A stretch of 64,000 nucleotides of DNA, taken from contig CM082577.2 of NCBI GenBank assembly GCA_040954595.2, forward strand, positions 19,690,303 to 19,754,302, read 5' to 3'. The stretch is from Balanoglossus misakiensis (Eukaryota; Animalia; Hemichordata). A program made the translations under genes and the position numbers. The notes below the pieces were generated by a model, which saw nothing but the letters and a program-made list of their open reading frames with translations, was not told where the DNA came from and made no database searches. Of this stretch, positions 22,013-56,794 are shown piece after piece. The stretch's first letter is position 1, and the number at the start of each line of letters is the position of its first letter.

Positions 22013-25000
22013 TTAGGGTTTCGAGACCAGAGGGGTCTCGAAACCCTCTTGAAATCGTGTTGTTTTTTATTATTAGGGTTTCGAGACCAGAGGGGTCTCG
22101 AAACCCTCTTGAAATCGTGTTGTTTTTTATTATTATTATTCTTCTTCCCACTTTTAAAAACAGCCGCTATTCGAAGACCGTTGCACCCAATGACTTGAAA
22201 TTTGGCTCATAGGTAAAACTCAAAGCAAGTAATTTTCTGATCATGTCACTATGGCAACAGGTCACATGACCTGGCAGCCATCTTGGATTTAAACTTTTAA
22301 ATTGGTCTCATTTGCATAAAAAATGAAGAATCCAAATTCTGTTCAGAAACTGTGTGGACCATATGGCCAGGGTCCTATATGCCAAATTTCAATGTCTAAG
22401 TCCTTGCCGATTTTGAGGAGATGATTTTTAAAGCATTATTTTTCATATTTTCCATGACCATTGGACCCAGCCATTGGCCTATACTTTCCATGGTTAAGCA
22501 ATGGCCCCCTAGGATTTTAGATTTATGCCCAATATCTCAACATCCGCTGGGCTGATCAGCTTCAAATTTTGTGTGCAGCTAGCCTACCTTCCGACAATCA
22601 TTTCCAACTGGAAAAAATAATATGGAAAATCGACCGATTTTTTTATATTAATTTTTTTATGAAATCTATACCTATACTTATTCAACTATACTTTAGCTAT
22701 GGCCACATAGTTTTGTAGAATTCTGGTCGGTGCAATAGTCTGCAGCATAGGACCAAAATAAGAAGCCAAATTTAAGGCTCACCTGTGACACCTGCTAAAC
22801 TCATTAATTATGTGCATACCTAATTCCAGGCAAACCAATAGGGCTACAGGTCTGGTTTTTGTCGGACATGGACCAGTATGGGGTAAAAAAAAATTCCCAA
22901 ATGTTGGGTGAACTTGGGTGACCTTTGACCTATTTTCGCATATCTCAGCATCCAGAGCAGGTACAGCTCAGGTGTTTGGGTGGATGGGACCAAAATAAGA
23001 AGCCAAATTTAAGGCTCACCTGTGACACCTGCTCAACTCATTTATTATGTGCATACCTAATTCCAGGCAAACCAATAGGGCTACAGGTCTGGTTTTTGTC
23101 GGACATGGACCAGTATGGGGTCAAATTTTTTCCCCAAATTTTGGGTGACCTTGGGTGACCTTTGACCTACTTTCGCATATCTCAGCATCCAGAGCAGGTA
23201 CAGCTCAGGTGTTTGGGTGGATGGGACCAAAATAAGAAGCCAAATTTAAGGCTCACCTGTGACACCTGCTCAACTCATTAACTATGTGCATACCTAATTC
23301 CAGGCAAACCAATAGGGCTACAGGTCTGGTTTTTGTCGGACATGGACCAGTATGGGGTCAATTTTCCCCCCCCCAAATTTTGGGTGACCTTGGGTGACCT
23401 TTGACCTACTTTCGCATATCTCAGCATCCAGAGCAGATACAGCTTGGGTGTTTGGGTGGATGGGACCAAAATAAGAAGCCAAATTTAAGGCTCACCTGTG
23501 ACACCTGCTTAACTCATTAACTATGTGCATACCTAATTCCAGGCAAACCAATAGGGCTACAGGTCTGGTTTTTGTCGGACATGGACCAGTATTGGGACAA
23601 TTTTTTTTCCCAAATTTTGGATGTCCTTGGGTGACCTTTGACCTACTTTCACATATCTCGGCATCCAGAGCAGGTACAGCTTAGGTGTTTGGGTGGACGG
23701 GACCAAAATAAGAAGCCAAATTTTAGAGTCACCTGTGACACCTGCCTAACTCATTAATTATGTGCATACCTTATTCCAGGTAAACCAGTAGGGCTACAGG
23801 TCTGGTTTTTGTTTGACATGGACCAGTATAGCGTAACCTTTGACCTACTTTTCCACATCTCAGCATCCACAGCACATACACCCTTGGCATTTGGAGTGAT
23901 AGAACAACTAATGCAGTAATTAAATATGCACAAATCTATCTCCAGGCGAACCAATAGGGCTAGTAGTGTCTCGAAACCCGCTTATTGCTGTTCACAGCTA
24001 TATTTATTATTATTATTATTATTATTCTTCTTCCCACTTTTAAAAACAGCCGCTATTCGAAGACCGTTGCACCCAATGACTTGAAATTTGGCTCATAGGT
24101 AAAACTCAAAGCAAGTAATTTTTTGATCATGTCACTATGGCAACAGGTCACATGACCTGGCAGCCATCTTGGATTTAAACTTTTAAATTGGTCTAATTTG
24201 CATAAAAAATGAAGAATCCAAATTCTGTTCAGAAACTTTGTGGACCATATGGCCAGGGTCCTATATGCCAAATTTCAATGTCTAAGTCCTTGCCGATTTT
24301 GAGGAGATGATTTTTAAAGCATTATTTTTCATATTTTCCATGACCATTGGACCCAGCCATTGGCCTATACTTTCCATGGTTAAGCAATGGCCCCCTAGGA
24401 TTTTAGATTTATGCCCAATATCTCAACATCTGCTGGGCTGATCAGCTTCAAATTTTGTGTGCAGCTAGCCTACCTTCCGACAATCAGTTCCAACTGGAAA
24501 AAATAATATGGAAAATTGACCGATTTTTTTATATTAATTTTTTTATGAAATCTATACCTATACTTATTCCACTATACTTAAGCTATGGCCACATAGTTTT
24601 GTAGAATTCTGGTCGGTGCAATAGTCTGCAGCATTGGACCAAAATAAGAAGCCAAATTTAAGGCTCACCTGTGACACCTGCTCAACTCATTAATTATGTG
24701 CATACCTAATTCCAGTCAAACCAACAGGGCTACAGGTCTGATTTTTGTCGGACATGGACCAGTATGGGGTCAAATTTTTTCCCCGGAATTTTGGGTGACC
24801 TTGGGTGACCTTTGACCTACTTTCGCATATCTCAGCATCCAGAGCAGGTACAGCTCAGGTGTTTGGGTGGTTGGGACCAAAATAAGAAGCCAAATTTAAG
24901 GCTCACCTGTGACACCTGCTCAACTCATTAATTATGTGCATACCTAATTCCAGGCAAACCAATAGGGCTACAGGTCTGGTTTTTGTCGGACATGGACCAG

Positions 25001-25927
25001 TATGGGGTCAAATTTTTCCCCAGAATTTTGGGTGACCTTGGGTGACCTTTGACCTACTTTCGCATATCTCAGCATCCAGAGCAGGTACAGCTCAGGTGTT
25101 TGGGTGGATGGGACCAAAATAAGAAGCCAAATTTAAGGCTCACCTGTGACACCTGCTCAACTCATTAACTATGTGCATACCTAATTCCAGGCAAACCAAT
25201 AGGGCTACAGGTCTGGTTTTTGTCGGACATGGACCAGTATGGGGTCAAATTTTTTCCCAGAATTTTGGGTGACCTTGGGTGACCTTTGACCTACTTTCGC
25301 ATATCTCAGCATCCAGAGCAGGTACAGCTCAGGTGTTTGGGTGGATGGGACCAAAATAAGAAGCCAAATTTAAGGCTCACCTGTGACACCTGCTCAACTC
25401 ATTAACTATGTGCATACCTAATTCCAGGCAAACCAATAGGGCTACAGGTCTGGTTTTTGTCGGACATGGACCAGTTTGGGGTCAAATTTTTTCCCCAAAT
25501 TTTGGGTGACCTTGGGTGACCTTTGACCTACTTTTGCATACCTCAGCATCCAGAGCAGGTACAGCTTAGGTGTTTGGGTGGACGGGACCAAAATAAGAAG
25601 CCAAATTTTAGAGTCACTTGTGACACCTGCTTAACTCATTAATTATGTGCATACCTAATTCCAGGCAAACCAGTAGGGCTACAGGTCTGGTTTTTGTTTG
25701 ACATGGACCAGTATAGCGTAAACATTTTCTGCTCATATTAAGCGTGACCTCACGTGACCTTTGACCTACTTTTCCACATCTCAGCATCCACAGCACATAC
25801 ACCCTTGGCATTTGGAGTGATAGAACAACTAATGCAGTAATTAAATATGCACAAATCTATCTCCAGGCGAACCAATAGGGCTAGTAGTGTCTCGAAACCC
25901 GCTTATTGCTGTTCACAGCTATATTTT
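22013..25927 (+). mobile_element. Self-nested pair of Helentron/HINE-like elements with internal ~237-bp tandem repeats
   Basis: Two heads gggtttcgagacc...ggtctcgaaaccc (22016, 22076) and two tails gtctcgaaaccc + gctg-ttca-cagc hairpin (~24003, ~25925); five internal ~237-bp units per body. Confidence 0.82.
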
Positions 25928-26307: not shown

Positions 26308-27126
26308 CAGTGCAGCTTAGGAATAGCTTTCCAATTTGCTAACAACTTGCTGACATGGTGTTTATAATGCGTCAGCACAGTGTTAGCTCATGTGTTACAA
26401 AGGTGTGAATCTGCTGGCCCTGGCACTTGGCATTGTTCAGTGTTAGCATGTGCTACAAAGGTGTTAAACCTTGGCGCACCCTATTGTTTTTTGGCACACA
26501 GTGTTAGCCTGTGTGTTCCAAGTGTTACAAAGGTGTGAATCTGTTGGCCCTGGCACTTGACATTGTTCAGTGTTAGCATGTGCTACAAAGGTGTTAAACC
26601 TTGGCGCACCCTATTGTTTTTTGGCACACAGTGTTAGCCCATGTGTCACAAGTGTTACAAAGGTGTGAATCTGTTGGCCCTGGCACTTGGCATTGTTCAG
26701 TGTTAGCATGTGCTACAAAGGTGTTAAACCTTGGCGCACCCTATTGTTTTTTGGCACACAGTGTTAGCCTGTGTGTTCCAAGTGTTACAAAGGTGTGAAT
26801 CTGTTGGCCCTGGCACTTGACATTGTTCAGTGTTAGCATGTGCTACAAAGGTGTTAAACCTTGGCGCACCCTATTGTTTTTTGGCACACAGTGTTAGCCC
26901 ATGTGTCACAAGTGTTACAAAGGTGTGAATCTGTTGGCCCTGGCACTTGGCATTGTTCAGTGTGAAACCTTGGCGCACCCTATTGTTTTGGCACACCCCA
27001 GTTAAACACAAGGCCAATAGGTGCTAATTAGAGCGCCAATAGGGTGCTAACCCAGAGTTGACCCAGTGTTTAAACAGAGTTGACCCAGTGTTGGTGCAGG
27101 CGGAAAGCTATTCCTAAGCTTCACTG
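26308..27126. mobile_element. Tc1/mariner-type MITE, copy 4 with expanded internal tandem array
   Basis: Same TIRs and TA TSD; about five internal units of ~120-130 bp. Confidence 0.88.
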
Positions 27127-38899: not shown

Positions 38900-38983
38900 A
38901 TGAAAGCCTTAATAATTTTAAAACTAGTAGTGGTATTTCTAGTTATTCAATTTCCGAGTATACTTCAAACAGCATTGGCGAAG
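38900..38983 (+). CDS. Coding exon 1: signal peptide MKALIILKLVVVFLVIQFPSILQTALAK
   Basis: Acceptor ttttcttacag ends 38894, ATG at 38900, basic n-region, hydrophobic core, A-L-A cleavage motif, donor AAG|gtaagg (phase 0). Confidence 0.8.
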
Positions 38984-39007
38984 GTAAGGACATACATGTA
39001 ACTACAT

Positions 39008-39096
<89 letters not shown>

Positions 39097-42000
39097 TGGT
39101 CGGTTGATCTATCTATCTATCTGTCTGTCTGTCTGTCTGTCTGTCCGTCCGTCCGTCCATCCATCCATCCATCCATACAAAATCATGGCCCCCAATGAAA
39201 ACATTGTATTTTCCACCTTGAAACTACACAAAGTATGATCTCATTCACTAGAACACATGGAAGTAAATGTCCTGAGACATTACATTTTTATTTTTCGTTG
39301 CAATATTTCGCTTTTCATTTTAATTGCATGGAATTTATATCTAGCTGAAATGGCGTATTTGAGTTTTCCAAAGAACGTATGGTGGTGCTCTTTGTTCCGC
39401 GTGGGCCACCCACTGAAAATCTGTGATTGCATGGTTAGATCTCAATTTACCATGGTAACTGTAGCTAAATTTGCATAGGTGACCATATAGCAGACTTTGC
39501 AACATCCACGCGTCTGTAAAACCATCGAAAGAAACTAAAATTGTCACAAGAGGAAAACGCCACGGCATAGATTGGTTGATGCAAATCACTACAATGACTG
39601 CAGCGTGCCCTGATTTCATTTGGGGCTGAACATTTCTGTGATACCGTAATTCATGTATGTGACAGTTCCAAGTCAAAAATGTCTTTTTTCCCAGGAGTGT
39701 AAAACTAGCAAGAACACGAAGACGTACATAGAAACACAGCACAGAGAAAAAAGGAAAGTGGCACATCACCCAATCACAAGTACGTTTTTTAATTGCAATG
39801 TGTTTTTAGCATGTTTCAAAATTGCATAGTAGTTCGCCCATTCATGTTGAAAATAAATTGTCTATCGTCACAATATTTTATGAGCACATATGGGTAGTAC
39901 CATAGGTAGCCTGGTCACCATACCCAGTGTGTTTCAGATAGACTCACACCTCCGTGTTTTAGGTGTATGTTTGTTTGTTTGTTGTTATTGAACAAAAATG
40001 TTTGTTTGTTTATTTATTTATAAATATGGTCACGTTTGTTTGTTGACATGTTAGGGTTAGGGTGTATTCAACGGTTAGGGTTTATTGGGACTTTTTTCGC
40101 TCCACGGCATCTCTCCCAAACACTAAAACACGGAGGGAGCGCCCCCTGTGGTAGTACCCACAGTACTGAAAATCTGTGATTGGCTAGATCTCAATTTGCC
40201 ATGGTCACTCTAGGGACCGTTCAGTTTTTACGGCCGGGGGGGGGGGGGGGCAAAATCCAGGGGGGGGGGGTCACTTAAATTTTAAAGTCCAAAAGGGGGG
40301 GGGTGATCTGGGTTTTTTAAACGTTTAGGGGGGGTCACATACTTTTGCCACCGAACTTTTGAGTCCACAAAATTGCAGTTTCGCGCCCTTTATTTTACAA
40401 AATTTTCTAACACCCACCCCCTTCATTCTTCGCCAAATATGGTAGGCATGTTCCTAGGGGTACATCAAATAAGTTGTTCTAAAAAAAATTTCCCTTTTCA
40501 TTGCAGTATTGCACTTTTTTTAAAATTGCAGGAATTTTCGTTTTTCTTTAATTTTTGGCCATTTTGTCATAAATAAGTGTTGAGCTTGATATATTATCAT
40601 GAAATATCATTTTATAGACATAATTAAAAGCATATACGAGAATATTTAAAACTTTAATTTTTTATCCAGTTGCAGCTCATGTACCTTTAATGCGTCAGTG
40701 GAATTCGAATTGGACCAAATAGCTTGTTAGTCCAGCTTTGGCCAGCACTGGCGTGAACCCGGAAGTTTTATTGGTCCAATTTGAATTTCACTGACGCAGT
40801 AACCTTCCATTGTGTGACATTTAAGTACTGGGCTAGTTTCAACCCTTGTCTCTCTTTGTATTTTGGGAGTGATGCCGTGGAGTGAAAAATCCCAACACTA
40901 ACCCTAACTGTTGAATATACCCTGTCATGTCAACAAACAAACGTGACACGTTTGTTCATTATACCAATAAATAACAACAAACAAACAAACAAACAAACAC
41001 ACACAATAAAAGCACGGAGGGCAGCGCCCCCTGTGTCAAAACATCAATTAAAAGCAAACAAAATCAGAAATTCCTTTTCTAAGCTAGATCAAAACAGATT
41101 TATAAAATATTTTTAATCAGCTAGATTAATTAGCTGTCCTCATCATTGATTAGCATTTAAGGCTATGTTTTCTACACTGATCCCTTCTAGATGTTTCTGT
41201 TGAAAACTTTTCCTGTGAGGAAAACTGTGGCGGAACATGTCAATTTAGGTGGTGTTACAAAGGAGAAATTGAAGCTCCCAAAAGGTGTAAGTGTAAAGAT
41301 GCTTTATACAAATGTTGTTTAGGTGAGTACTCATCTAATTTGAATGAAGACAATGTCAATATCTGGTTTAGCATTTCACATCACATTTCAATGTATATGA
41401 CTGCCAGGGTCATCATATTCATCGAATCTTCAGTTTCCATAGCAACCAGAACAGATCATAATACAATGAAATACCATGCACACATCACTCTTTTCTATTT
41501 TTGATACAAAATAAATCAATGCACAGATCGATGTTTGTAAAGTAGTCCTTGAAACAGCTGTGTTGTCTCTGTATTCAATGTAAAGTTATAAAGTAACTGT
41601 CGTTCAATATTCTATTTAATTCCCCAAGGACAAATTGGCAGTTGGACTTTCAGATTTTGTTTTCCATTTATCCAAGTGTATGCATGCAGACAGTCAGTTC
41701 ATGTCTTGCACAATTGTATTCAGATGATGATGATGATGATGGTGATCATGATGATGATAAATTAATTTTGAAAAATTGTTTACCAAATATTTCTTCTAAA
41801 AGTGTCAAGAATAATTAAAATGTAACAGTAACTGGTGTAATACTGAAACAGTTGGAACTGAGAAATAGGGCACTGTAGTAGATATCACAAAAAAGTGATG
41901 TTCACATTTCTTTTTTTTTGTCCCATTTGGTATACCATGGGACCATATGGAATCAGTTGCATCTGTCTGAATGTCTGTCTGTCTGTCTGTATGTATGTAT

Positions 42001-45000
42001 GAAAAAATGATCTGTCGTCTTCTTTAAAAGTTAGTATAAACCTTATATAGGTGATCTGAGTTATCATAGTTTTGTTCAAATTGTTGGAAAATTTGCGTAT
42101 TTTTAATTTTGTAGCACTTTTTGCCTTTTTTGGTCAAAATTTTTCTCTAAAACCACTTGTCAGATTGCTTTGAAATATGGTAGGCATGTTCCTAGGGGTA
42201 CATCAAATAAGATGTTCTAAAAAATTTTTTATCAAAAATTATTTTCTTCCAAACTGCATGTTACATTGTTTTGAGCAGTTTTCGTAGGCATGTTCCTTTT
42301 GGTGATTGAACAATTTGTGTTTTTGCCACTTTTGAAAAAATATTGATTTCTCTGAAACTGCTTATGTTATGGGATTGCTTTGAAATTTGGTAGGAATATT
42401 CCTACTGTTAACCCAAGTTTTTGTCTGATTGCTTTGCAATTTGGGATGCAAGTTCATAAGACATGTGCAACTTTTATGCAATTCTGATGTTAGAAATGTT
42501 CAATATTTAGCAAGTATTTTTGTAATTATCTTTGATTTCCTCCAAAACCTCTTGTCCACTTGCTATGAAAGTTACCCGATATAATGAGTTGATCACTCAG
42601 TACACTACATGTTTATATAACTTTAATAGGCCAGCTGTTACAGAGACCACCAGCTATGTCTCTATTTGTCCCAGAGCTGAATGAAAGAAGTTGCTTGTCA
42701 TACTCATATGCGTTCTTACAGACAGTTTTTGGTCAAAAATCAGTTTTTCTAGCACTGCTTGTAAGATTTCTTTGACAATGACACTTGATTGGGCATGTTC
42801 GTAGTTATTTTTTTTTACATTTCCATATTTTTTCTAAAATTTATATATGGTTATATCATATCTGCTTGTCAATGTCACCGGGTACCTGTGATTTTAATTC
42901 TGGTGTATACCTATTTCTCTGTAATCCAAAAATGGGATCACAGTGTCCTTGATGCTATTTTTTGTAATTTTCTTTGTTTTTGTCAACAAAACTTCTCCTA
43001 AGCCACTTGTCCAGTTGCTTTGAAAGTTAATCTTTACTTTTCTATGATATATCGCCTGGATGGTTCAGATCAAACTGATGTGACTCGGATTTAACTCAAC
43101 AGTCAACAAGTGTGCATTTATTGTATGGCTTCCATGAAGCTAAAGAGAATAACAATATCCCATATTATATTATACCAGTATATTGATGGTGTAAATCGCG
43201 CTATTTGATTGGTCGAGACACGACACGTGACCGTGATATATTAGCCATATACCACAGTCATATATCATAGTCAAAGAAAATGCCTTTTAAAAATGTTTTA
43301 TGCAAAGTTTCAATATACTGGCATAATATAATAGCAATAAAACACCCCAAGCCATGGTATACCACTCGATTTTGACCAGTTCAACTCCATATACGCACTC
43401 GCTATCGCTCGTGCGTATATGTCGTGAACTGGTCAAAATCTCGTGGTATACCATGGCTGGGGGTGTTTTCGGATAATACATGTACTTCAATTAACCATAG
43501 AGGGCAGTGTACATCAGAACACGACATTTTCTTTTATTAACTGCCGGTGGCAGGTCACTGAGTGTCGGTCTGTCTGTCTTTTCTTTTTATATTTGGTTAG
43601 CTAGGTCATACATGTATCTGCCTGCCAATGTCACCCGATTTTTATTCTGGTATATACCTATTTCTGTGTAATCCTCAAATTGGACCAGAATGTCCTTGAC
43701 GCTACGTTTTAGGAAAGGCATGATTCTATTTTAACTTACTTTTTGCAACTTACCCAGAGTATAGACAATAACCATAGGTACAGCAAAAATGTAGGATGTT
43801 AATGACAAACAAGAAGGAAGTCGAGAAGGACTGAGTATTTCAAAATGTGAACCCTTCACATGAATATTATGCTGGACAAGTTTTGGTCCTACGAAAATTG
43901 AGTATAACGCCCTCTTGCACCGGAAATACATGCACCTGTTCGTCCGAGTTGTGAAGTCAGATAGATATAGAAGTGGGAAGGCTGCCACGCACGATGTTGT
44001 TACAGTACTACGAGTAGTTTAGTATTTTGATAGTTTTACTGCGATTTGATGTCGTTGATCGGCCCAATATAGATGTCAACGTTCCGTTTCGTGTTGGCAA
44101 AATTTCCGATGTAGTTTTTTGATAGATCTGAGACTGTTGAGGACCCAACCCATGCATTAATATTGCTATTGACATTTAATCGACCATAGCGAACAGTTTC
44201 CGGTGTTTTCTGACACTTGAACTTTGATTGTTATCGATTGGAATTCGTTTTCGGCAATTTGTGTTGGTTTATTGAATACGGTCCTTTACAAATAAAATAA
44301 ACTTCACATCGTTCGTTCGTACGAACGAACACTTTATGAACCTTAGCAGTGGAATCAGTTATTGAACTTTTTCGTACTTCTGGTATTCTTTGTTCTAATT
44401 TTATATGCAGATGACCCCGATGAATTGCACTGTAATGAACAATGTGGAGGGCTATGCCGGACAACATGTAAACCCGATGAAGTTGAATCAACAGGACCAT
44501 GCAAATGTAATGGTCTCCAAAGTAAATGTTGTATAAGTAAGTGAAAAGATATAAAACAAGATTGTTTTTATTGAGCTCAGTAGTGAGTACATGTTTGAAG
44601 CTTTGATTTTATCACCATTGCTATAATTATATTTGGCTCAGTCTATGATTTTATTTCTGACATATTTGTGATAAAGTGAGTGAGTGGGATGAATGTAATA
44701 CAGGGGAGTATATTAACATCCTCGAGCAATTAAGCTGGATTTCATTCAATCTTACTGCTCAGATTTCACTTTGATGCAGTCACCATGAATTTTGCACTTG
44801 CAACTTCTAAAGTTTTTTTGTGAAATCAAGAGAAAAACCCAAATTGTAAGTTATGACTTTTATGACAACTGGAACCAATTCTCCCCTGTAGTGAGACTTA
44901 CTCAAAAAGTGTTTTTAGCTTTGACAAGTTTTGTCTTTTTGTTTGTTTACTGTTTGGCTAAATAGAGAACCCAACAATTCTGAGATGTGCTGATCAATGT

Positions 45001-45587
45001 GATGGAAGTTGCCGAAAACACTGTAAAGATGGTGAAATTGTTGCATCAAACGGATGTACTTGTAAAGACAACCATGTCTGTTGTATTGGTAAGTCATAAA
45101 TAGTGATAGTAATTGTTTATCTGTTAGTGTGACTATGAATACCGAGATAGTTAGCTTTAGATTTGTAGCGTGGTCTTTGTATGTATGTATGTATGTATGT
45201 ATGTATGTATGTATGTATGTATGTATGTATGTATGTATGTATGTATGTATGTATGTATGTATGTATGTATGTATGTATGTATGTATGTATGTATGTATGT
45301 ATGTATGTATGTATGTATGTATGTATGTATGTATGTATGTATTATGTATGTATTATGTATGTATGTATGTATGTATGTATGTATGTATGTATGTATGTAT
45401 GTATGTGTGTATGTATGTGTGTGTATGTATGTATGTATGTACGTACGTGTATGTATGTATATGTATGTGTGTGTATGTATGTATGTATGTTTGTATGTAT
45501 GTATGTACATGTATGTATGTATGTATGTATGTACGTATATGTATGTACATGTATGTATGTATGTATGTATGTATGTATGTATGTATG

Positions 45588-45621
<34 letters not shown>

Positions 45622-45950
45622 TGTATGTATGTATGTATGCATGTATGTATGTATGTATGTACGTGTATGTATGTACATGTATGTATGTATGTGTGTGTGT
45701 ATGTATGTGTGTTTGTGTGTATGTATGTATGTATGTATGTATGTATGTATGTATGTATGTATGTATGTATGTATCATGTATGTATGTATGTATGTATGTA
45801 TGTATGTACGTGTATGTATGTACGTGTATGTATGTATGTGTGTGTGTATGTGTGTATGTTTGTATGTATGTATGTATGTATGTATGTATGTATGTATGTA
45901 TGTATGTATGTATGTATGTATGTATGTATGTATGTATGTATGTATGTATG

Positions 45951-45981
<31 letters not shown>

Positions 45982-46747
45982 TTACATATAATCCCATGAT
46001 ATCTTTCTTTGTTTGCCGTCATCGTATACGAGTGGTTTTCGCGGAGCAGACTGCAACTTCGAGCCGCGCCTCCGCGCAAACCACGAGTATACGTTGACGT
46101 TAAACAAAGAAAGATATCATGGGATTATATGTAAATATGCAAATGATGAACTATCGCTGATCATTCATAAAATCTCCCAACATATATCTCGTGGGGGAAA
46201 TAATACCGCTCAGTAAAATACCGCGCCATTTCAAAATTGTTGCAAGATACTGAATTTTTTTTTTTTAGTCCTGCCTCTTCTAACGAAAAATAAGAAGACT
46301 GTTCATGTGATAAATAGATAATCCCATGTATGTATGTATGTATGTATGTATGTATGTATGTATGTATGTATGTATGTATGTATGTATACATGTATGTATG
46401 TATGTATGTATGTATGTATACGAAATATGTTGTTCGACTGGTCCGATACGGAGTGCTCGATACTATAGTAGAGCAAAATATAAAGTAAGGGTAGCTGGAG
46501 AAACGATAGGTGGTATAATCTCTACAATGTTGTTTCGTGAGTCACTGGACTCCCTCATCAGGAGACTAAACTGGAGAAAATGTGAAGGGGAAGACGTGGT
46601 TATATGCAGGTGGTGGAATGTTGGTTGGGAAGGGCAGTTTTGCATAACAATGTGTAGCTGGTGATGTGAATGTGTTGTGTGGGGAGTTTCTAGATTTAAT
46701 TTGTTGCATAACAATGCTTTGTGTCTGTGTCGACATGACATGTGTGC

Positions 46748-46778
<31 letters not shown>

Positions 46779-49700
46779 GAATTTATTCGGCTCTACCACA
46801 TATACATACATTCATATACATACATGTTTTATGTATAGGTTTGTAAACATTAAACATTACATAATTATATCCTGGACTGTAGATAGGAATTTGTTCATAT
46901 TAATTTGTGCAGATCAAGCTGTAATTTTTCTCAGAAGCGATTTGTGCAAGAGTTGATAAAGTTTGCATGGAGGTACCCAAGAATCTTCACTTGCACTTTC
47001 CTTCAAGTTATGATATACATGATAGTTTATTTTGGGGCAAAGATAGGAATGTAATGGAAAATTGATTCAGCTGATATGCTTGTGAGTATGTCTTAACTAA
47101 ATGAACTATTTTTATGTTTTGTGGTATCAAGATGACCCAACTAAATTGGACTGTTCTGAACTGTGTGGTGGCACATGCAGAAATTCAGGTTGCGAAAAGG
47201 GAGAGATTCGGGCAACTAAGGGTTGTAAATGTGCTGGCAAATTTCACTGCTGTATTTGTAAGTATACTGTGTACCTTGTAAATATTTGGAACACCTGCAA
47301 TCTGATCATTGTATTTCCCCCAACAATGAAAAGTAAAGTATACATGTTGTGTGGTAAAAAGCATTGTAATATTTAAGCAATAACCCGCAGCCAAGGGTGG
47401 TTATACCCTGAGATATAGCACAATTCATGCCATATATGCACGTATATACAGTATGGAGTGAATTGTGCTATATCAAGTGGTATACCCACCCTCGACAGGG
47501 GATTAATGCTATTTTATTATATCATCATTATTATATCACGAATACGACATAACAAGTGAGGTGTAATACTTTCTTTTCAACACTGTGTGACATAAGAAAC
47601 TTAGGAATTATCAGTTATCTGAGTCATGGACCTGACTCTCTTTTTTAGGTCCCTTTTGTGTATGTATATATACCAGTGCAGTGGGACCTCATGGGATCGG
47701 TTGTGTCTATATGTATGGATGTATATGTATGTATGGATGTATGTCTGTATGTCCGTCCACATCAAAAACTTGAAAACCGCTGTGCGTATAACCTCGATAT
47801 TTGGTGTGCAGGTGCATTACGGGCTATAGGTAGGAGTTTGTTCAAATGAAGTTGTCGTGGCCAAAAACATGCAAATTCGCTGGGGGAAACCTAAATAAGG
47901 TCAAAACTCAGAAACTCAACAACCACTGGTCATATTGATTTGAAAATTAATATGCATGTACCTGATGTTAACCTCACACAGGTCTGTATGTTTTGAGCTA
48001 ATAGTGTGAATTTATTTTTTATGTATTGTTTTGTCTTTTTCCACATTTTTGGTAAAACATCTACTTTTCTGGAATTGATCAGCCGACTTCTTTGAAATTT
48101 AGTATGGAGCTTCATATAGGTGATCTGAGTTTCCAAAGTTTTGAGCAATTTTTGCCTATTTGATCAAATTTGTTTTTCTGTAAAATCGCTTGTCAGATTG
48201 CTTTGAAATTTGGTAGGCATGTTCCTAGGGGTACCCCGAGTAAGACTTAGGTGTATGTTTTCTAATCAAGTTGAAGAATTCAATAGTATATTTTTGGGCG
48301 ATTTTTGCCTATTTTGGTCAAAACTCTTTCTCAGAACCCTTTTCCCCATTGCTTTGAAATTTGATTTAAAGGTTCCTGGGTGTGTTCTCATGATGATTTA
48401 CAAAACCTATGATGAAAGTGTCAATGTTTTGTGTGGGCAATATCTTGTATTTTGGGGGCATATTTTCCAATTTTGATAAAAAAATTATATTTCTCAGAAA
48501 TTATATGGCTGATTATTTTTAAAAATTTTGTTGTAAGATAATTGGATTGTCTTCTTTAGAATTATAATGGAATCAAATCATAGGTAAATCGGAACTTTTA
48601 TATTTTGTAGGATATTTTGTCTTATACCACAAAAAAATTCATCTCAAGAAGAGCAATTACTTGTACATTCTTTGTAATAAAAGAGGCACCCTACTGACAT
48701 TTGTAAACACAGCAAATTCCTGCATGATTACATAACTGGCCAACTTTTAAAGAGACCAGCTGTTCTATTTGGTGTATGTACAGTACACATGCCATCGGCA
48801 GCTTATGGGTCAGTCAGTGTTTGCCCATTGATCTCTCGCTATGTGTGTGTGTGTGTCTGTTTGTATATGTACTCCGGTTTAGACTTTTTCTGTGTAATCC
48901 CTAAATGGGACCACTGTGTCCTTGACGCGATTTTTTTATTGTTGTTACCAACCGAAGAGGAGTAACATGCACACACCTGTAGTAGAGATTGTGTAATATT
49001 CTCACTTTTGGAATGATGTTTATAAAGTTGTAACTGTAATTATATCTATTCTATTAGCTGACCCCTACAATGTCAGAATTCCATGTGATGACAGCGAAGA
49101 ACGTGTGTGTCGCCATAGACAGTGTCAAGTGGAGGAAGAGAAAGCTCCGCATTTCCTTGTATGTGATGGCTCCACTGATACCTGTTGTATAGGTGTGTCT
49201 TTAATTGTTATAGCAGTAGAATAGTACACAAGTCCAAATGAATTAAACTTTGTGGTTGGTATTTCCCTCATCAGTATTACACCAGAGAAAAATAAAGGCA
49301 GTGACATCATGAATGAAATATTAAAAGTGTATTAAGGCCGAGTGAAAGTAATATGTTTTTATTGATTTGATGAGGATACTGTTGAAGTGCAATACTAGTT
49401 AGTTTATTATGTCAATAGTAATACATAGTGGAGAAAGTATACGTATTGTATGCAGTTGAAATTCGCAAACTGTTTTTTTAAGAAAAAATACTTGGTCAGA
49501 TGACCAGGTTGATCAGCTAATTGACCAGTAGAATATATGCTAGTCTAGAATCTATCCGTTCGTAGTCGCATTCACCCTACTACCGTCTAGGACCGCAGAA
49601 CCAAAATCTAGTAAGGCCATAAAAATGGTAATTTGAATGTGAATAGTCTCCAACTGAGCAATCTGACGTCAGAGAAGTCAATCACTTACGTTGACCGACT

Positions 49701-52700
49701 ACTGATTGGCCGTGAGGTGATGACGTTGAATGTTAATTATGTTTACAATGTAGCTCCGCCCCGAATGATACATAATCATGATCACGTGGTGACGCTTGAC
49801 GTCAGATTGCTCAGTTGGAGACTATTCACATTCAAATTACCATTTTTATGGCCTTACTAGATTTTGGTTCTGCGGTCCTAGACGGTAGTAGGGTGAATGC
49901 GACTACGAACGGATAGATTCTAGACTAAATATATGCATGCTGTTGCCAGTATAACCAATTATATTAATGCATTGATCGGATAAAGATTGAATTGTTGATC
50001 AGCTACTGAGGTGGCTGCACATGCGTAGCCGCTGTTTAAGCGCAACTAGTTGCCAGTCGAGTAGCCCGGTGTAACTGTTCGATGTAGCGTAGCGACTCGA
50101 GTTGCACACTTGGCCTTTTATAGAACAAGAGGCGCAGCTCAACCAGTGCTAATAGTACATAGATCACACAAGTTGTCTGTATCAACATAGAGTGTATTAA
50201 GGATACGAGATAAGAAATTCAATTTTTTTGAGGTTATAAACGGCTAGCGAGGGTATTTGGTTGCGGATGGTGAAAATAGCATATTTGGCGGGAAACAATC
50301 GCCTCGCGCCTGAGAGGTATCCGTACCAAATACCCAAGCGCACCGTTTATAACCTCTTTATAATATGAATTTGCAGGATAAAGATAAACAATTTCATTAT
50401 TTTGAATTCGTTGTTTGGTTAGGAATAAATCATGCCAGTTCCAGGGCCTCATCGCTCACTGTTCCAGAATGTGCCTGCTGAGCTCATGCTAACGTGTTCT
50501 AGAATTTCTAAATCGCGCGAGTTTATTCCACCACCAGTAAAGTTATAAACTGTGTTGTATTCAGGCCCGTTCTCTTCTTCGTGTTCCAACATGTTATTTT
50601 TTTTTAACTATTCACTGTGCAGGGTCCAGGTCGAGGATATAAACCCCGGCTCCAGCCAATCTGCGAGCTGGATTCATACCAAGCATATTATAATGAAATA
50701 AACATTTCTCTGTTAATAATTGTGCTCAGAATCCCCTAAAACTATATTTTCTGAAAGCTTAGATATAGGAGAACATTTTGAATACCATTGTTTACACATC
50801 TATCACGTGACAATCAATTGAAATAACCTTTGAAAAATCAGTTTTCTCGATGTTTTGTGTTAAAGCTTGGAGATATCTTGCTCAAATTTGCATGAATGCA
50901 AGTTGTCGTAACTATCATACAAAGTATGTCTCAGATTTTTTTTAAAGCACCTAGCTCAATTTTTATGACACGAAAACTTCGGGAGCAGTGAATTAACCCT
51001 AGTCTATCGCCTTTAAGAATTTACCACGAAAAAAACAGTCAGATAAAAGAAATCCCAGACACACTTTGTATGATAGTTGTGTATACAATGGTCACACTGA
51101 AGTAACCAAAATTTACTTCCTATATCTATATGCTAGATATTAATTTAGGCAGAATGTCAATGTATTTAAACATGACGGCTCCAGAGTCCAATTGTGAAAT
51201 AAATGAGTTTCATAAAATAAAAAATAACCAAAATCTTAAAGAACGTGACCTTATATCATACAAGCACAGCTGCATAGTGGCACTATTTTGTGTATGATCC
51301 CAATCATAAAATCTCTGAAAAGCGAATGAAGACTAGGAATAATTGACAAAAGAATTGTAATCTCTCTACAACAGACCAGGACTATGAAGTAAGATGTGAA
51401 AGTTCATGTCATGGTAAATGCAAGACAGAATGCAATTATAAGGAAATTGAATTATCATCTGATTGTAAGTGTAACAAAGGTCATGTATGTTGCATTGGTA
51501 AGTATGCCTGATATTCGCAAGAAATCTTACAATAAACAATAATTTTGCACCCCCCAAAAAACAAACAACAACAAACGTTCTTTCAATTGACATTTGACCA
51601 AAGTTACCTCAAATATTTTAATTTTTATATGAAGTGTCTTACCCAGAGATTGAAATAAATCCAAATTAATTTGGAATTTTTTGACTACTTTTCAAAATTG
51701 TTTGAATTTATCTGGTGATGAGCCATCAAGTTTATTATTAGTTTAATGAAGGGGTTGTAAACATATTGAGAAATATATTTCAAAACCCTCTTCCTGTGCC
51801 ATGTGAGATCTTGGATGAAGCACAAATGTCACAAATTACCCAATTGTGCTAACAAAGACAAATTATGAAAATACCAGTTTACAGCAAATAATATTGAGGC
51901 TTGTATCGACTGTATATTCTGACAGAAAATCCAAGCATCTTAGAATGTAACCAGGCCTGTGGTGGTACATGTCTCACAGAGTGCAACGAAGGACAGATTG
52001 AATCCTCACACGATTGTAAATGTAAAAAAAATGGCAAATGTTGCATAGGTAAGCAGTGCTACTGTTGTCATGCATGATGACTGCAGCAGATTATTTCCTT
52101 CAAATAAAACAGTCACAAGCAAAATACAAATAAGCTTGCATGTCGATTAATATTAATGACGCTACGCTAATTTGCATACAAGCGTCCCCCATCACAGTTG
52201 TTAATCTAAGGTTCCACTGTATATTATGCACTTCACATATTGATATGTTTCTCTAAGAGGCTGAATGTAAATCGAGGGCATGGACAGATCTTTTGTGTAT
52301 GTACTTGTTTGAAAGCAACATTTTGGAAAAAAAAGGTAGTGCATCCCGGGACCAATGCATGTCCGTGCTCTGAGATTTTTTTCTATCTTCTTCAAAACTA
52401 TTGAGAGTTCAACAAAATCGTTCGGCACAACTATTTTCAAAGGCATTGGTCCCGGAATGCGCTACCTTTTATTTCAAATTGTTGCTTTTCACACAGGTAA
52501 ATATCGGGAAAAACTTACAGTTACAGGGCTGTGCATCTAACGGTGATGCCCTGGGGCATCACTGGCCGTAAGACACATTTGCTACGCCCTGCTACGAGCC
52601 TATGTCACACCATGCAGAGCTAGCCGTTTCCGTGCTCCGAGTATTTTTCAATCTTCTTCAAAAGTATTGTGATTTCAACAAAATCGTTAGGCACAACTAT

Positions 52701-55700
52701 ATTCTAAAACATTAGTCAAGGAACGCGCTACCTTTTATTCTGAAATTTTGCTTTCAAACACATATTACTATCAGGAAAAACTTCCAGTAAAATAAAGCGA
52801 GTGTTTGTAGTCCTGATCGGCATTTTGAAATCCCATGGAATGTCGGGAAGAAACACCGAAAATTTCAGCTGGACTATGTAGGTTTTGCTGCTTGACAAAC
52901 CCCTTGCGCAGCTAAATTATCTAGATTTCGTCGCTTGATAAATTTTCTTTCCATCTAGTGGATATAGATTCTCTGCTTTGCTAATATTTCTTACCTAGGC
53001 CTGATTTTTGTCTTCATAATGTTTTTAAATGACAGCAACAGCATGCATGAACACCTGTGTATCAACATGAATGTCATTTCAATGCAATTCTCAGTCTTGT
53101 CTGATTTTCTGTGGACTTTTTAACACAGCGGATCCTCAGAGACTGGAGTGCAATCAAGTGTGTGGTGGTAGATGTCGTCACAAATGTGATGAAGATGAAA
53201 TTGAAGCCAATGACAATTGCAAATGTGTTGGCAAAAGCAAATGCTGTATTCGTAAGCATTGATTTTTTTAGGTCCCATTTGGTTTATATGTATGTTTATA
53301 TGTTTATATACCATGGGACCTTATGGGATCAGTTGCGTCTGTCTGTCTGTCTGTATTTATGTCTGTCTGTCTGTCTGTCTGTATGTATGTATGTATGTAT
53401 GTATGTATGTATGTATGTATGTATGTATGTATGTATGTATATGTATGTATGTATATGTATGTATGTATGTATGTGTATGTATGTATGTGTATTTGTATGT
53501 GTATGTGTATGGATGGATGTATGTATGTATGTGTATCAAAAACTTGAAAACCGCTGCGCGTATAACCACAGGGGGCTGCAAACATGAAAGTTATAAATGG
53601 CGAAGTTCTGATCCGCATTTTCCCCAATAAACAGTACTTGCTGAACAGTCTCTGTGCTTGTTATTTTTCTGTGTTACCCCCTCCTGCCTTATCAGTTGCT
53701 AATCCGGAATACAAGCTATCTAATTTCCCATTAAGCACCTGCTAATGACATAATCTGTGTGCCCCATCCACGGATTAAGTGGATAAAGTAAACATCGGTC
53801 AGTTCTCACTTGGTAACCCAGTACTCGGTGACCAATGTTTACTTTATCAATTTAATCCGTAACTGCTCTAATCAGTAAGGCTGCATTCACAAACACCTGT
53901 GGAGGGGGGCGGGGGCGGGAGAATTCAATTTTTTTTACCGCTAATTTTCACATGCCCCCCTTCCGAACTGCCAATATTTTCAAATCCCCCCCTTCCGAAC
54001 TGCCAAAATTTTGAAATCCCCCCCCCATTTTCTTTCACAGAGCAAAACACATCACCTACCTATCTTGTAAAAAGAAAAACAGCGCTCCCATGAAAAGAAT
54101 TTGAAACTGATGTTTCCCCTCATCAGTGGGTATTAAAACTGAACATTGTTTTTATTTTTTAAGTACATATATTTGTATTCTGTGTTGGGAGACATTGTAA
54201 ACCGAGAATTGAAGGGGGTGGGTTTGGGAGGGGGTGTCCTTTCTAAAATACAGAGCTCAAAGCTGCATTTTAATGAACCCGGCAAAAGCAAATTAACTCA
54301 ACTACCGGTATGTTGGGGAGGACAAAGTTAACCGTCGCCGCTCAAAGTTATCATGGGGTGGGGCAAGTCCCCTGACCTGGGACACTAGATAAACCAGTCA
54401 ATGATTGAAAGGTGTTGATGAATGAAGGGGGTGGGTGTGGGAGGGGGTGTCTCCCTCCCACATTAGAAAATTTTGTAAAATAAAGGGCGCGAAACTGCAT
54501 TTTTGTGGACTCAAAATAATTTTTGTCTGTCTGTGTGTCTGTTCCAGGGCTGACTGAAAGAAGTTGCTTGTCATATGTGTTTGTACAGACAATTTTTGGT
54601 CAAAAATAAATTTTTCTAGCACCACTTGTAAGACATGGCCATCTATTGGGCATGTTCCTTGTTAATTTTTTTACATTCCATATTTCTATATGATTAGATC
54701 ATATCTGCTTGCAATGTCACCTGTAATTTTTATTCTGGTTTATCCCTATTTCTGCGTAATCCTCAAATGGGACCACAGTGTCCTTGACGCTATTTTTTTT
54801 ATTCATTCTGTCACTGCACTCATAAAAAGGGTGTATTGTGATTGGCCACTTGGGTGGAAATGTTATGTGTCCATAACATCTGTAGGAGAGAAAATGGTGA
54901 TTACCGGTATATGAATATTTTTAAAATCTGTAACAAAAGTTATTATACCTATTATCTTCCAAAATCTTTATTCACTTATAAATATTTTACATGATTTATG
55001 TTAGGTTGTAGTGGTATTAGGGTAGACTATTCTGAGTAAAAACTGATATATTTGCAATCATATATAGTGATGATTGAACACTCCATGTCATTGATGATGT
55101 CAACAAAATAATCATGATTTAATCAAATGTGTTTGATGTCTGCATGTGATGTAGGCCACCCTGATGTGATGGACTGTAAAAAGAACTATGGAGGCGAATG
55201 CCATGAAGAATGTGGACCTGGTTTAAAAGAAGCTGTTGGACTGAGTCGATGCCACAACAAAACTCTTAAATGCTGTGTCGGTGAGAATATGTCAAGAAAG
55301 ATGTGATTTACTGACTATTCAGTGCTGTATTCATAAATTTGCATGGCTTTTGCATTAAAGATATAGTGTCTCCAAATATGAGATTCGAGTAGTCAATTAC
55401 TCGACTGAAGATCATGAATGCAAATTTTGTTTTAAAATCAGGCCCATATATTTTTAAATACTTTCCATGACAGTGTTGAAGTGATAAAACTGAAACTAAA
55501 TTGTATTGGGCTGATAACTCCAAAAGCAACAAACAATACTAGACTGGTGTGTGCACTGTATTTTTGCCTTTTTGTTTTTCCTTCTGACAGAGAAGTTAAA
55601 AGTCCCCTGATAATGTGATTGCATGCACACAAAGGTATGCTGACATCTATTTAACATGTAACTAACATTTGAATTTATTTTAGATGATCCACATGAACTG

Positions 55701-56794
55701 AAATGTGGAAAACATTGTGGTGGAGAATGCAAATCGTCTTGTGGCAAAGGGTTTCGTAGTACACCTGCAGATTGCAAATGTCCTGATAAAGATGAAGTCT
55801 GTTGTATTGGTAAGTATGGCTATTGAAATGCTATGCCTATAGTTATCCCTTAAAACCATAGCAGCAGATCTGCTGAGAGATACTACACATCTGATTAAAA
55901 GAAGCATCAGACATCCACAATTTACATGCAGATCTGCCAAATAGTCTCCGAGAGGATTTTCCAAAAGCAGTGGAGACAACTGGCACCTTTACACAAGCTT
56001 CAGCTTTAAAACAGCTGGCATGAAAACTACTTCTAAAATTTGAGAACCGAAATACTTTGTGCAGGTTGACTGTGCCACATAAGCCGGAAGATACCAAATT
56101 AGAAGTGATGGCATTTCGCTGAACCAATTGTGAATTGCTATGGATAGTCTCAATTTCTGTGTCCTAAATATCTCACCCCTTATTCCTTCTGCATTACATC
56201 ATCATGTGATTTAAAACTGATCATGCCTGTAAGAGTAGTTTTGTCTTTGTAACTTTCTTTTCAAATTTGTTTATAAAATTAAAAAAACACACCAAAGATT
56301 GAAAAGGAGGCTTGTAGTGATTTTGGCAAAATGTTTAGGGGAAATGTGTTTGGGTATTATCAAAATAAAGTGAAACTGCATTCAACATTATGAAAATGAT
56401 CATGAGCAACAACATAGACGATGTTCTGATGACATTACTGGGGACTCATTAACCTTCATATTTATTTATTTATTTCAAATAAAAATAAATTAGTTGGATG
56501 CAAACCTCTCTCCGCTTGAGCCCAGGCCTTTGTACAGTGCATTAAACATTTGATATGTACAAATGTATATGAAAAACTAGCATCATAATATTTAAAATGT
56601 GTGACATTTCCCCGATTTAAACCTGATTTTGTAACACACCTCTTGTTTCTCTGATTTCTCTAGATCACTTAGAAGAACTAAAAAGGTCAAAATCTAAGAG
56701 AGAAACCACATCAATTCAGAATGCCCCAGTTACCAACCCTCCCACCACAGGATTGCCAACAACACAAGGATATCTGGATGATACTGACTTGTAG
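38900..56794 (+). CDS. Spliced gene model: secreted ~520-aa precursor with ten tandem beta-defensin-like cysteine modules (13 coding exons)
   Basis: join(38900-38983,39695-39779,41191-41322,44411-44536,44966-45088,47132-47257,49058-49192,51375-51497,51926-52048,53129-53251,55155-55280,55684-55809,56664-56794) = 1563 nt, 521 codons including TAG. All introns are GT-AG, phases are compatible (0, then 1 throughout), and there are no internal stops. The fold assignment is inferred from Cys spacing only. Confidence 0.85.
39011..39175. repeat. Compound microsatellite (TTTA)n then (TCTA)/(TCTG)/(TCCG)/(TCCA)n
   Basis: Read directly. Confidence 0.95.
39695..39779 (+). CDS. Coding exon 2: pro-region ECKTSKNTKTYIETQHREKRKVAHHPIT
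   Basis: Acceptor cttttttcccag, donor A|gtacgt. The 85-nt phase 0-to-1 exon bridges the signal exon to the phase-1 module exons and contains R-E-K-R (39743-39754). Confidence 0.7.
41191..41322 (+). CDS. Module 1 (8 Cys): NVSVENFSCEENCGGTCQFRWCYKGEIEAPKRCKCKDALYKCCL
   Basis: cccttctag acceptor, G|gtgagt donor, 132 nt, phase 1-1. Confidence 0.9.
   Translation: MFLLKTFPVRKTVAEHVNLGGVTKEKLKLPKGVSVKMLYTNVV
41911..42964 (+). mobile_element. Intronic DINE/HINE-like element (gtcccattt...aaatgggacc family)
   Basis: 5' gtcccat...atgggacc palindrome, GTCT/GTAT microsatellite, 3' aaatgggatc + gtgtccttgatgc hairpin + T run. Confidence 0.65.
44411..44536 (+). CDS. Module 2 (8 Cys): DDPDELHCNEQCGGLCRTTCKPDEVESTGPCKCNGLQSKCCI
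   Basis: atatgcag acceptor, A|gtaagt donor, 126 nt, phase 1-1; overlaps ORF 44362..44544. Confidence 0.92.
   Translation: MTPMNCTVMNNVEGYAGQHVNPMKLNQQDHANVMVSKVNVV
44966..45088 (+). CDS. Module 3 (8 Cys): KNPTILRCADQCDGSCRKHCKDGEIVASNGCTCKDNHVCCI
   Basis: aaatag acceptor after a T-rich tract, G|gtaagt donor, 123 nt, phase 1-1. Confidence 0.9.
45178..45980. repeat. (ATGT)n microsatellite, ~800 bp, with degenerate core; shorter tract at ~46326-46420
   Basis: Read directly; it generates the MYVC/HTYI ORFs. Confidence 0.98.
47132..47257 (+). CDS. Module 4 (8 Cys): DDPTKLDCSELCGGTCRNSGCEKGEIRATKGCKCAGKFHCCI
   Basis: tatcaag acceptor, T|gtaagt donor, 126 nt, phase 1-1; overlaps ORF 47101..47376. 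Confidence 0.9.
47641..48937 (+). mobile_element. Intronic DINE/HINE-like element, same family
   Basis: ttttttaggtccc...gggacc head; aaatgggaccactgtgtccttgacgcgattttttt tail. Confidence 0.7.
49058..49192 (+). CDS. Module 5 (6 Cys, divergent): SDPYNVRIPCDDSEERVCRHRQCQVEEEKAPHFLVCDGSTDTCCI
   Basis: ttctattag acceptor, G|gtgtgt donor, 135 nt, phase 1-1; has the DP start and CCI end shared with most other modules. Confidence 0.85.
   Translation: MTPTMSEFHVMTAKNVCVAIDSVKWRKRKLRISLYVMAPLIPVV
49541..49927. mobile_element. MITE with ~130-bp perfect TIRs and 9-bp TSD (MULE-like)
   Basis: tagtctagaatctatccgttcg...tgacgtca is mirrored; TSD aatatatgc. Confidence 0.9.
51375..51497 (+). CDS. Module 6 (8 Cys): DQDYEVRCESSCHGKCKTECNYKEIELSSDCKCNKGHVCCI
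   Basis: tctctctacaacag acceptor, G|gtaagt donor, 123 nt, phase 1-1. Confidence 0.9.
51926..52048 (+). CDS. Module 7 (8 Cys): ENPSILECNQACGGTCLTECNEGQIESSHDCKCKKNGKCCI
   Basis: ttctgacag acceptor, G|gtaagc donor, 123 nt, phase 1-1. Confidence 0.9.
53129..53251 (+). CDS. Module 8 (8 Cys): ADPQRLECNQVCGGRCRHKCDEDEIEANDNCKCVGKSKCCI
   Basis: tttttaacacag acceptor, C|gtaagc donor, 123 nt, phase 1-1; overlaps ORF 53071..53262. Confidence 0.92.
53263..54800 (+). mobile_element. Intronic DINE/HINE-like element, same family, with nested Harbinger fragment (~53879-54520)
   Basis: tttttttaggtcccattt...atgggacc head, (GTCT)/(GTAT)n, tail aaatgggaccacagtgtccttgacgctattttt. Confidence 0.7.
55155..55280 (+). 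CDS. Module 9 (6 Cys): RHPDVMDCKKNYGGECHEECGPGLKEAVGLSRCHNKTLKCCV
   Basis: gatgtag acceptor, G|gtgaga donor, 126 nt, phase 1-1. Confidence 0.87.
55684..55809 (+). CDS. Module 10 (8 Cys): DDPHELKCGKHCGGECKSSCGKGFRSTPADCKCPDKDEVCCI
   Basis: tttattttag acceptor, G|gtaagt donor, 126 nt, phase 1-1. Confidence 0.92.
56664..56794 (+). CDS. Terminal coding exon: DHLEELKRSKSKRETTSIQNAPVTNPPTTGLPTTQGYLDDTDL*
   Basis: Strong pyrimidine tract with ctctag acceptor, open in phase 1, two KR sites, Thr/Pro-rich tail, TAG at 56792-56794. Confidence 0.75.

Follow-up and report, generated by a model that had tools for sequence, protein, structure and literature searches.

What kind of protein is encoded by the row of small cysteine-rich exons found in a chromosomal stretch of the acorn worm Balanoglossus misakiensis? 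The exons lie on the plus strand of 64,000 nucleotides (nt) of contig CM082577.2 (assembly GCA_040954595.2, positions 19,690,303 to 19,754,302), which we call the window and whose own numbering is used for all coordinates. A sequence-only reading of the window had described ten exons of 123-135 nt, all phase 1-1, which together with a signal, a pro and a tail exon join in one open frame of about 520 amino acids (aa). The gene is best placed in a hitherto undescribed family of acorn worms with exon modules like beta-defensins, among whose arrays it was the longest that we found, and we discuss below how its modules may fold, which known proteins they resemble, and what a chain of ten of them might do.

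Gene structure

A blind scan for open phase 1-1 exons bounded by AG and GT, with at least six cysteines and a CC pair near the end, recovered the ten module exons with the length first described, spanning 41191-55809. It also returned alternative acceptors for three module exons as well as two candidates that are unrelated and due to chance, one at 1553 and the other within a microsatellite at 46318. As a strand control, a strict version of the cysteine-exon pattern found nine exons on the plus strand, none on the reverse complement and none in the reversed window. No eleventh module was found within the 64 kb. The signal, pro, ten module and tail exons make up 13 coding exons that join in a frame of 1563 nt, encoding 520 aa plus a stop at 56794, without internal stops; all 12 introns are GT-AG with matching phases, in agreement with the frame first proposed, and seven of the ten module donors start with GTAAG. 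Sequence and homologs support that the 13 exons would be spliced into one transcript. All module exons are phase 1-1, and therefore each can be duplicated, skipped or moved with the frame intact.

Exon 1 (38900..38983) contains the ATG and a signal peptide (aa 1-28, hydropathy peak 3.3 over 11 residues) and ends in a phase 0 donor. An acceptor just 5' of 38900 suggests a further upstream 5' untranslated exon. No hydrophobic segment was found beyond the signal peptide, the highest 19-residue hydropathy in the rest of the 520-aa frame being 0.39. The pro exon (39695..39779, phase 0-1, aa 29-56) encodes a furin-type REKR site at aa 45-48 and the sole cysteine outside the modules. Eight cysteines each are encoded by modules 1 (41191..41322), 2 (44411..44536), 3 (44966..45088), 4 (47132..47257), 6 (51375..51497), 7 (51926..52048), 8 (53129..53251) and 10 (55684..55809), and six each by modules 5 (49058..49192) and 9 (55155..55280). 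The tail exon (56664..56794, aa 478-520) has dibasic sites at aa 484-485 and 489-490, followed by a cysteine-free tail rich in threonine and proline and the stop codon; the exon encodes 8 Thr, 3 Ser and 4 Pro in 43 residues. The AATAAA closest to the stop is at 57737. The Thr/Pro-rich tail is a possible carrier of O-glycans, and three N-glycosylation sequons occur in the joined frame (aa 57, 62 and 428), in exons 41191-41322 and 55155-55280.

Cysteine patterns and kinship of the modules

Modules with eight cysteines have the spacing C-x3-C-x3-C-x3/4-C-x10-C-x1-C-x5/6-CC, and modules 5 and 9 have the spacing C-x7-C-x3/4-C-x12-C-x6-CC, which is the eight-cysteine frame minus its second and fifth cysteine. 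The two extra cysteines co-occur, both being present in eight modules and neither in two, and a homologous module from the acorn worm Ptychodera that is without the first extra cysteine gained another one, so that its total is still eight. Because both are lost together in modules 5 and 9, the pattern suggests that the extra cysteines bond to each other as a fourth disulfide atop a six-cysteine core, which itself would be paired C1-C5, C2-C4 and C3-C6. The motifs that the sequence-only reading had taken as typical of beta-defensins were found unevenly: G-x-C was present in nine of the ten modules, the combined pattern G-x-C..C-x3-E in six.

Pairwise identity among the modules ranged from 22 to 58%, and silent differences were found in 299 of 672 same-residue codon pairs. 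In a leave-one-out profile test each of the ten modules scored above 500 of 500 shuffles, module 5, the most divergent, by a narrow distance (19.9 versus 15.6 bits). Three introns of similar length (403-429 nt) had suggested a block duplication, which we rejected, as these introns showed no detectable kinship in sequence (z within 0.3). Since reading frames, splice sites and the six core cysteines were kept despite silent divergence and dissimilar introns, the modules are old duplicates maintained by selection. A tree of 25 modules was unresolved, with 2 of 22 branches supported and two modules of one Ptychodera homolog wrongly cut, and was not used.

Predicted fold

The alignment-based model of module 5 had a predicted local distance difference test (pLDDT) score of 84.6. 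Compared with 48,161 chains, it matched 20 at Z of at least 2, and 19 of these 20 have a defensin fold, with low scores (top Z 4.3). The best matches were Ueq 12-1 (Z 4.3, root-mean-square deviation 2.0, 40 residues), platypus DLP-2 (3.9) and human beta-defensins 1 and 2 (3.6), and both domains of AvBD11 were among the matches as well. A Foldseek search with the same model gave 21 rows, of which 20 were of defensin type. We take this as support for the fold because the list of matches is uniform, though the scores are low. The direct fold call covers the six-cysteine module 5. For the eight-cysteine module 7 a single-sequence model (pLDDT 62.6) produced two Foldseek rows, both unrelated, and VIA matched it to nothing at Z 2; this model is of low confidence and uninformative on the fold.

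Sequence searches pointed in the same direction with weak scores. Among Pfam models, PF13841 (Defensin_beta_2) matched module 3 (E 0.0071) and PF00711 matched one other of the ten modules (E 0.45), and no other models matched. WAP, antistasin and TIL had been named beforehand as families whose presence would speak against a defensin fold, and the Pfam scan matched none of them in any of the ten modules at E up to 1. In a language-model atlas the nearest clusters to module 8 were two of beta-defensins (0.83 and 0.77, at lead level). A profile of the ten modules had helianthamide as its sole match in the PDB (E 0.063), a 13-row alignment that included whole homologs returned one row, a human beta-defensin (E 1.7), and module 9 on its own returned one unrelated row. 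The tick carboxypeptidase inhibitor was not listed among the fold matches of module 5, which does not exclude a likeness.

Several of these results weigh against a common beta-defensin-type fold. The fold scores are weak, with a top Z of 4.3 and no Foldseek match at E 0.001, a profile of the eight-cysteine modules found no match among solved structures at E up to 10, and the matches of the eight-cysteine module 3 included two plant cis-defensins at weak scores (E 0.61 and 1.1). The eight-cysteine modules might thus have another small disulfide fold, for instance a cysteine-stabilised helix, and merely share the cysteine pattern; they do hold C-x3-C and C-x-C, which are the cis-defensin signature, and every fold score is below the usual thresholds. 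However, the six-cysteine modules keep six cysteines of beta-defensin type and drop both extras together, they are kin to the eight-cysteine modules in the leave-one-out test, and beta-defensins are what all four lines of comparison lead to, namely Pfam, the atlas, the profile search of the PDB and the search by fold. The related possibility that the exons are not all in one transcript has in its favor that symmetric exons can be freely skipped, but the homolog gene models show the same tandem junctions. We consider this pair of alternatives highly unlikely. On balance we consider a beta-defensin-type fold of the module family quite probable. The fold proposed by the sequence-only reading was supported in that 19 of 20 matches of module 5 were defensin-fold, and the direct evidence concerns this six-cysteine module alone and is statistically weak.

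Comparison with known defensins

Beta-defensins with several domains are described as rare, with two domains on separate exons in AvBD11 and four in helofensin (PMC9138766), and the Komodo dragon VkBD39 has three (PMC6716921). Like these, the window protein is predicted to be secreted and has tandem six-cysteine cores ending in CC. Unlike these, it has ten domains, is from an invertebrate and is neutral to acidic, and most of its modules have two extra cysteines. The expectation that known multi-domain examples are short was right for beta-defensin domains, for which two to four are reported in these sources. It did not take account of the long Spod-11-tox, from another superfamily, or of the rusticalin repeats in invertebrate deuterostomes. 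Spod-11-tox, a lepidopteran X-tox protein, is a secreted array of eleven cis-defensin domains without conserved cleavage sites (PMC2728511). Its resemblance to the window protein lies in secretion, in some ten imperfect motifs of defensin type set in a row and in the lack of conserved sites for cleavage, but it differs in having cysteine-stabilised alpha-beta domains that end in C-x-C, in being cationic and in its occurrence in insect blood cells, whereas the window modules have a predicted trans-defensin core with a CC end. Rusticalin has two beta-defensin-like repeats (Cx6Cx6-7Cx8Cx7CC) fused to a peptidase of the MD clan, and such fused pairs occur in invertebrate deuterostomes (PMC6339383). 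Rusticalin-like proteins and the tick carboxypeptidase inhibitor share with the window protein the use of tandem beta-defensin-like repeats as modules in secreted invertebrate proteins; rusticalin differs by its two repeats, six cysteines and peptidase fusion, and hemichordates go unmentioned in the main text of PMC6339383.

We compared the modules with the defining characters of several defensin classes. The broad spacing of lizard beta-defensins (C-x6-7-C-x3-5-C-x8-14-C-x5-7-CC, with extra cysteines allowed in the gaps) was found in 10 of 10 window modules and 9 of 15 homolog modules, the narrow canonical spacing (C-x6-C-x3-5-C-x8-10-C-x6-CC) in 0 of 10 and 0 of 15; core spacing in the window is x7, x3-4, x12 and x5-6. 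A signal peptide and a phase 1 intron before the cysteine domain are present as in beta-defensins, and a cationic mature peptide is absent, as the net charge of the modules (K+R-D-E) lies between -5 and +2 and is positive in two of the ten. Big defensins have a phase 1 intron just before the cysteine domain in common with vertebrate beta-defensins, and are reported absent from Ambulacraria, i.e. hemichordates and echinoderms (PMC7203481). They differ by a hydrophobic N-terminal domain, which has no counterpart in the 520-aa frame. The defining character of SCRiPs and Ueq 12-1, a CCC triplet at the C-terminus (PMC5450702, PMC10892658), was found in 0 of 10 window and 0 of 15 homolog modules. 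Ueq 12-1 is a mucus peptide with a net charge of -3, a beta-defensin core with extra disulfides, and moderate antibacterial as well as TRPA1 activity (PMC5450702); it is the closest fold match to module 5 and, like the ten-module chain, anionic, but has a single domain. The cationic motif of X-tox, ending in C-x-C, is absent, as the window modules end in CC and are non-cationic. A rusticalin-like architecture was not found either, since the cysteine spacing differs and the 520-aa frame has no peptidase-sized region.

In cysteine spacing the eight-cysteine modules agree with squamate ovodefensins. The lacertid ovodefensin motif (C-x3-6-C-x3-6-C-x3-C-x8-12-C-x1-C-x4-6-CC) fits six of the eight eight-cysteine modules strictly and all eight when x3-4 is allowed, compared with 7 of 160,000 shuffles for the relaxed form. 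Komodo eight-cysteine ovodefensins (VkOVOD4, VkOVOD6) have the spacing 3-3-3-9-1-6 (PMC6716921), the window modules 3-3-3-10-1-5/6, a comparison made by cysteine spacing alone. The eight-cysteine variant noted in the sequence-only reading has a precedent in squamates (PMC12278569, PMC6716921). Ovodefensins are peptides of the oviduct and egg (PMC12278569, PMC9363672), and the window protein might accordingly be an egg-coat, jelly or gamete-surface protein whose ovodefensin-like domains protect or bind spawned eggs or sperm. The motif fit speaks for such a role, as does the tectorin-type layout of one Ptychodera homolog described below. However, the motif fits 1 of 15 homolog modules strictly and 2 of 15 when relaxed, so that acorn worms vary in this spacing among themselves and convergence may account for the match. 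Furthermore, lacertid ovodefensins have a single domain, two exons and a charge of +3.5 to +20, and are clustered between MTMR9 and XKR6 (PMC12278569), whereas the window gene has 13 coding exons and ten non-cationic domains. Because of this variation in the homologs and these differences in build, convergence is as likely as descent, the likeness being one of cysteines and glycine. We regard an egg-coat role as quite unlikely. Beta-defensins, ovodefensins, big defensins, SCRiPs and X-tox proteins each have at least one defining character that is absent here, and the window protein should therefore be assigned to none of these classes; its predicted build is that of a beta-defensin array.

Relatives in other acorn worms

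We searched 1.84 billion cluster representatives with the ten-module profile and found four proteins at E up to 0.001 (2.4e-15 to 1.3e-4), all from acorn worms. They are XP_070579761.1 and XP_070580320.1 from Ptychodera flava, with five and four matched stretches, and XP_077867894.1 and XP_077866429.1 from Saccoglossus kowalevskii, with five and two. As clusters at this threshold they are the sole significant relatives, in line with the uncharacterised secreted family that had been proposed. All four are predicted gene models, independent of the finding in the window, and carry signal peptides. They have fewer copies than the window protein, and none is an ortholog of the ten-module protein, which itself was absent from the matches of both protein database searches. 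A single module scores too few bits for a library of this size, and one-domain relatives in other animals could be missed. In the literature searched, which included few subscription journals and left supplements, possibly with longer arrays, outside its scope, there was no description of a hemichordate module family.

The two Ptychodera proteins combine the module with other domains. XP_070579761.1 (P0001), annotated as BMPER-like, has five modules at about residues 36-250, followed by a VWD domain. XP_070580320.1 (P0002), annotated as alpha-tectorin-like, has 1631 residues and four modules (about 1272-1442) inside a lectin-VWD-C8-TIL-EGF protein, a layout which we liken to that of zonadhesin. 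Both were named for their annotated domains alone, and the runs of defensin-like modules are unannotated there. The Saccoglossus homologs are stand-alone secreted arrays without a Pfam match. The VWD domain of P0001 opens with a GDPH motif, which has a self-cleavage role. Pfam beta-defensin models matched none of the four homologs at E up to 1, a search with the module region of P0001 returned the self-match only (1 of 110 candidates), and one unnamed arthropod cluster at 0.76, found in the language-model atlas with the homolog P0003, was not used.

The homologs provided an independent view of the window. With a profile from 15 homolog modules, which exclude the incomplete fifth module of P0003, the ten exons ranked 1-10 among 2197 six-frame segments of the window (E 8e-14 to 0.01), with module 5 last and barely above the best unrelated segment (E 0.027). 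Cysteine spacing in the window is nearer to Ptychodera than to Saccoglossus, which differs around C-x-C, and 13 of the 15 homolog modules are net negative. Judging from these gene models, the defensin-like module appears to be a mobile unit that was fused into VWD, C8, TIL and lectin proteins in acorn worms.

Possible function

The term polyprotein used in the sequence-only reading implied a precursor that is cut into its modules, and this was not borne out. Basic sites flank the array (REKR and KR), and none of the nine linkers between modules has a dibasic site, which therefore argues for a multi-domain chain and not a classic polyprotein. The linkers have eight residues in eight of nine cases, with a proline at the fourth place in eight of the nine window junctions. 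Release of ten single antimicrobial or deterrent peptides, for example at acid-labile Asp-Pro bonds in the linkers, would be consistent with one module per exon, with free linkers and with the Asp-, Asn- or His-Pro that opens eight of the ten modules, and the closest fold match is an antibacterial mucus peptide. However, the linkers have no dibasic site, and a like linker persists inside the VWD mosaic proteins (eight residues in 7 of 7 Ptychodera linkers, six of which have a proline in position four). Spod-11-tox, a defensin array that was tested, releases no active defensins (PMC2728511) and is a precedent for an uncut array. Release of single peptides is in our opinion very doubtful.

Instead, the exons would be spliced to encode a secreted protein of ten cysteine-rich domains, and a proprotein convertase would trim it at the flanking basic sites to a chain of about 440 residues. 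There are 76 cysteines between the REKR and KR sites, one before and none after, and cutting at both flanks would give 443 residues of about 49 kDa with a net charge of -7; trimming would thereby remove the lone unpaired cysteine and leave an even number. If the pro part were retained, this cysteine might bond two chains to each other as a dimer or attach a chain to mucins. The chain would stay whole as ten disulfide-locked, rigid and protease-resistant domains on short tethers, and its ten heads, having diverged, would give it avidity for targets such as glycans, the surfaces of microbes or hydrolases of foreign origin. The array probably grew by duplication of the symmetric phase 1-1 exon.

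Gel mucins, FCGBP, tectorin and zonadhesin are built from VWD-C8-TIL units, and mucus is both the surroundings and a feeding aid of acorn worms. Given the non-cationic modules, the fusion of the same module into VWD-C8-TIL-lectin proteins and this life style, we tentatively favor a convertase-trimmed, multivalent binding or cross-linking component of mucus or of a surface coat, and not a cationic membrane-lytic peptide. Neutral to acidic modules would fit charge-driven membrane lysis poorly. Other observations count against the mucus role. VWD-C8-TIL proteins also form egg coats, sperm adhesins and inner-ear matrix, and the mucus role is drawn from two predicted Ptychodera gene models and analogy. 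Moreover, killing is compatible with a lack of positive charge, since the anionic Ueq 12-1 is moderately antibacterial and 13 of 65 beta-defensins from lizards have a neutral or negative charge (PMC12278569).

A different possibility is a multi-headed inhibitor of microbial, parasite or predator enzymes, with each module blocking a protease, carboxypeptidase or glycosidase. Helianthamide, the sole PDB match of the ten-module profile, is an alpha-amylase inhibitor with a beta-defensin fold and, with the tick carboxypeptidase inhibitor of the same fold, would serve as a model, and diverged non-cationic tandem heads are typical of multidomain inhibitors. In addition, the tandem beta-defensin-like repeats of rusticalin were proposed to be a double-headed inhibitor (PMC6339383). 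In the alignment, however, conservation is confined to Cys, Gly, Arg and Glu, with no exposed motif that could be a reactive site, four of the ten modules are without any aromatic residue, and neither the window protein nor any of the four homologs has a peptidase domain. We consider an inhibitor unlikely, and the inhibitor and mucus roles are not mutually exclusive.

Other features of the window

Some 24 kb ahead of the gene for the ten modules and in divergent orientation, an open stretch on the minus strand (14742-15101) resembles a first exon of TELO2 (TEL2); its N-terminal 110 residues weakly match two TEL2 structures (E 0.05 and 0.078). A long inverted repeat lies in the intron that follows module 5 (49533-49934, self-match of about 400 bases) and looks like a miniature inverted-repeat transposable element or a foldback element, and smaller palindromic elements are located at 40687-40802, 43339-43469, 45979-46137 and 47376-47510. 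TGTA microsatellites directly follow modules 3 (45178-45980, 199 copies) and 8 (53340-53532, 50 copies) and translate into cysteine-rich junk frames outside the gene. Satellite-like tandem arrays are found at 1692-8587, 12755-13506, 22750-25795 and 26392-26963, with periods of 155, 188, 237 and 130 bases, and 155-base pairs recur about every 1.4 kb.

Implications

Acorn worms might carry an expanded, so far unrecognised lineage of trans-defensins with true homology both to the beta-defensins of vertebrates and to the eight-cysteine ovodefensin framework, with its exon shuffled as a phase 1-1 module, inserted into mucin-type VWD-C8-TIL-lectin proteins and multiplied here into a beta-defensin array longer than any other on record. 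We regard this full scenario as rather doubtful; the parts of the ten-module gene have precedents, and homology to vertebrate defensins is hypothetical. If true, the scenario would fill the Ambulacraria gap in the history of defensins and would show in living animals the exon shuffling by which beta-defensins have been proposed to arise. Whether this origin was by exon shuffling or by intronisation was left open (PMC7203481), and the reason for polydefensins was termed an unanswered question in a source in which the longest case cited has four domains (PMC9138766). A hemichordate phase 1-1 exon of beta-defensin-like type, repeated ten times in one gene and also found in mucin-type mosaics, bears on both questions, and the gene further offers ten natural, non-cationic disulfide scaffolds from one family.

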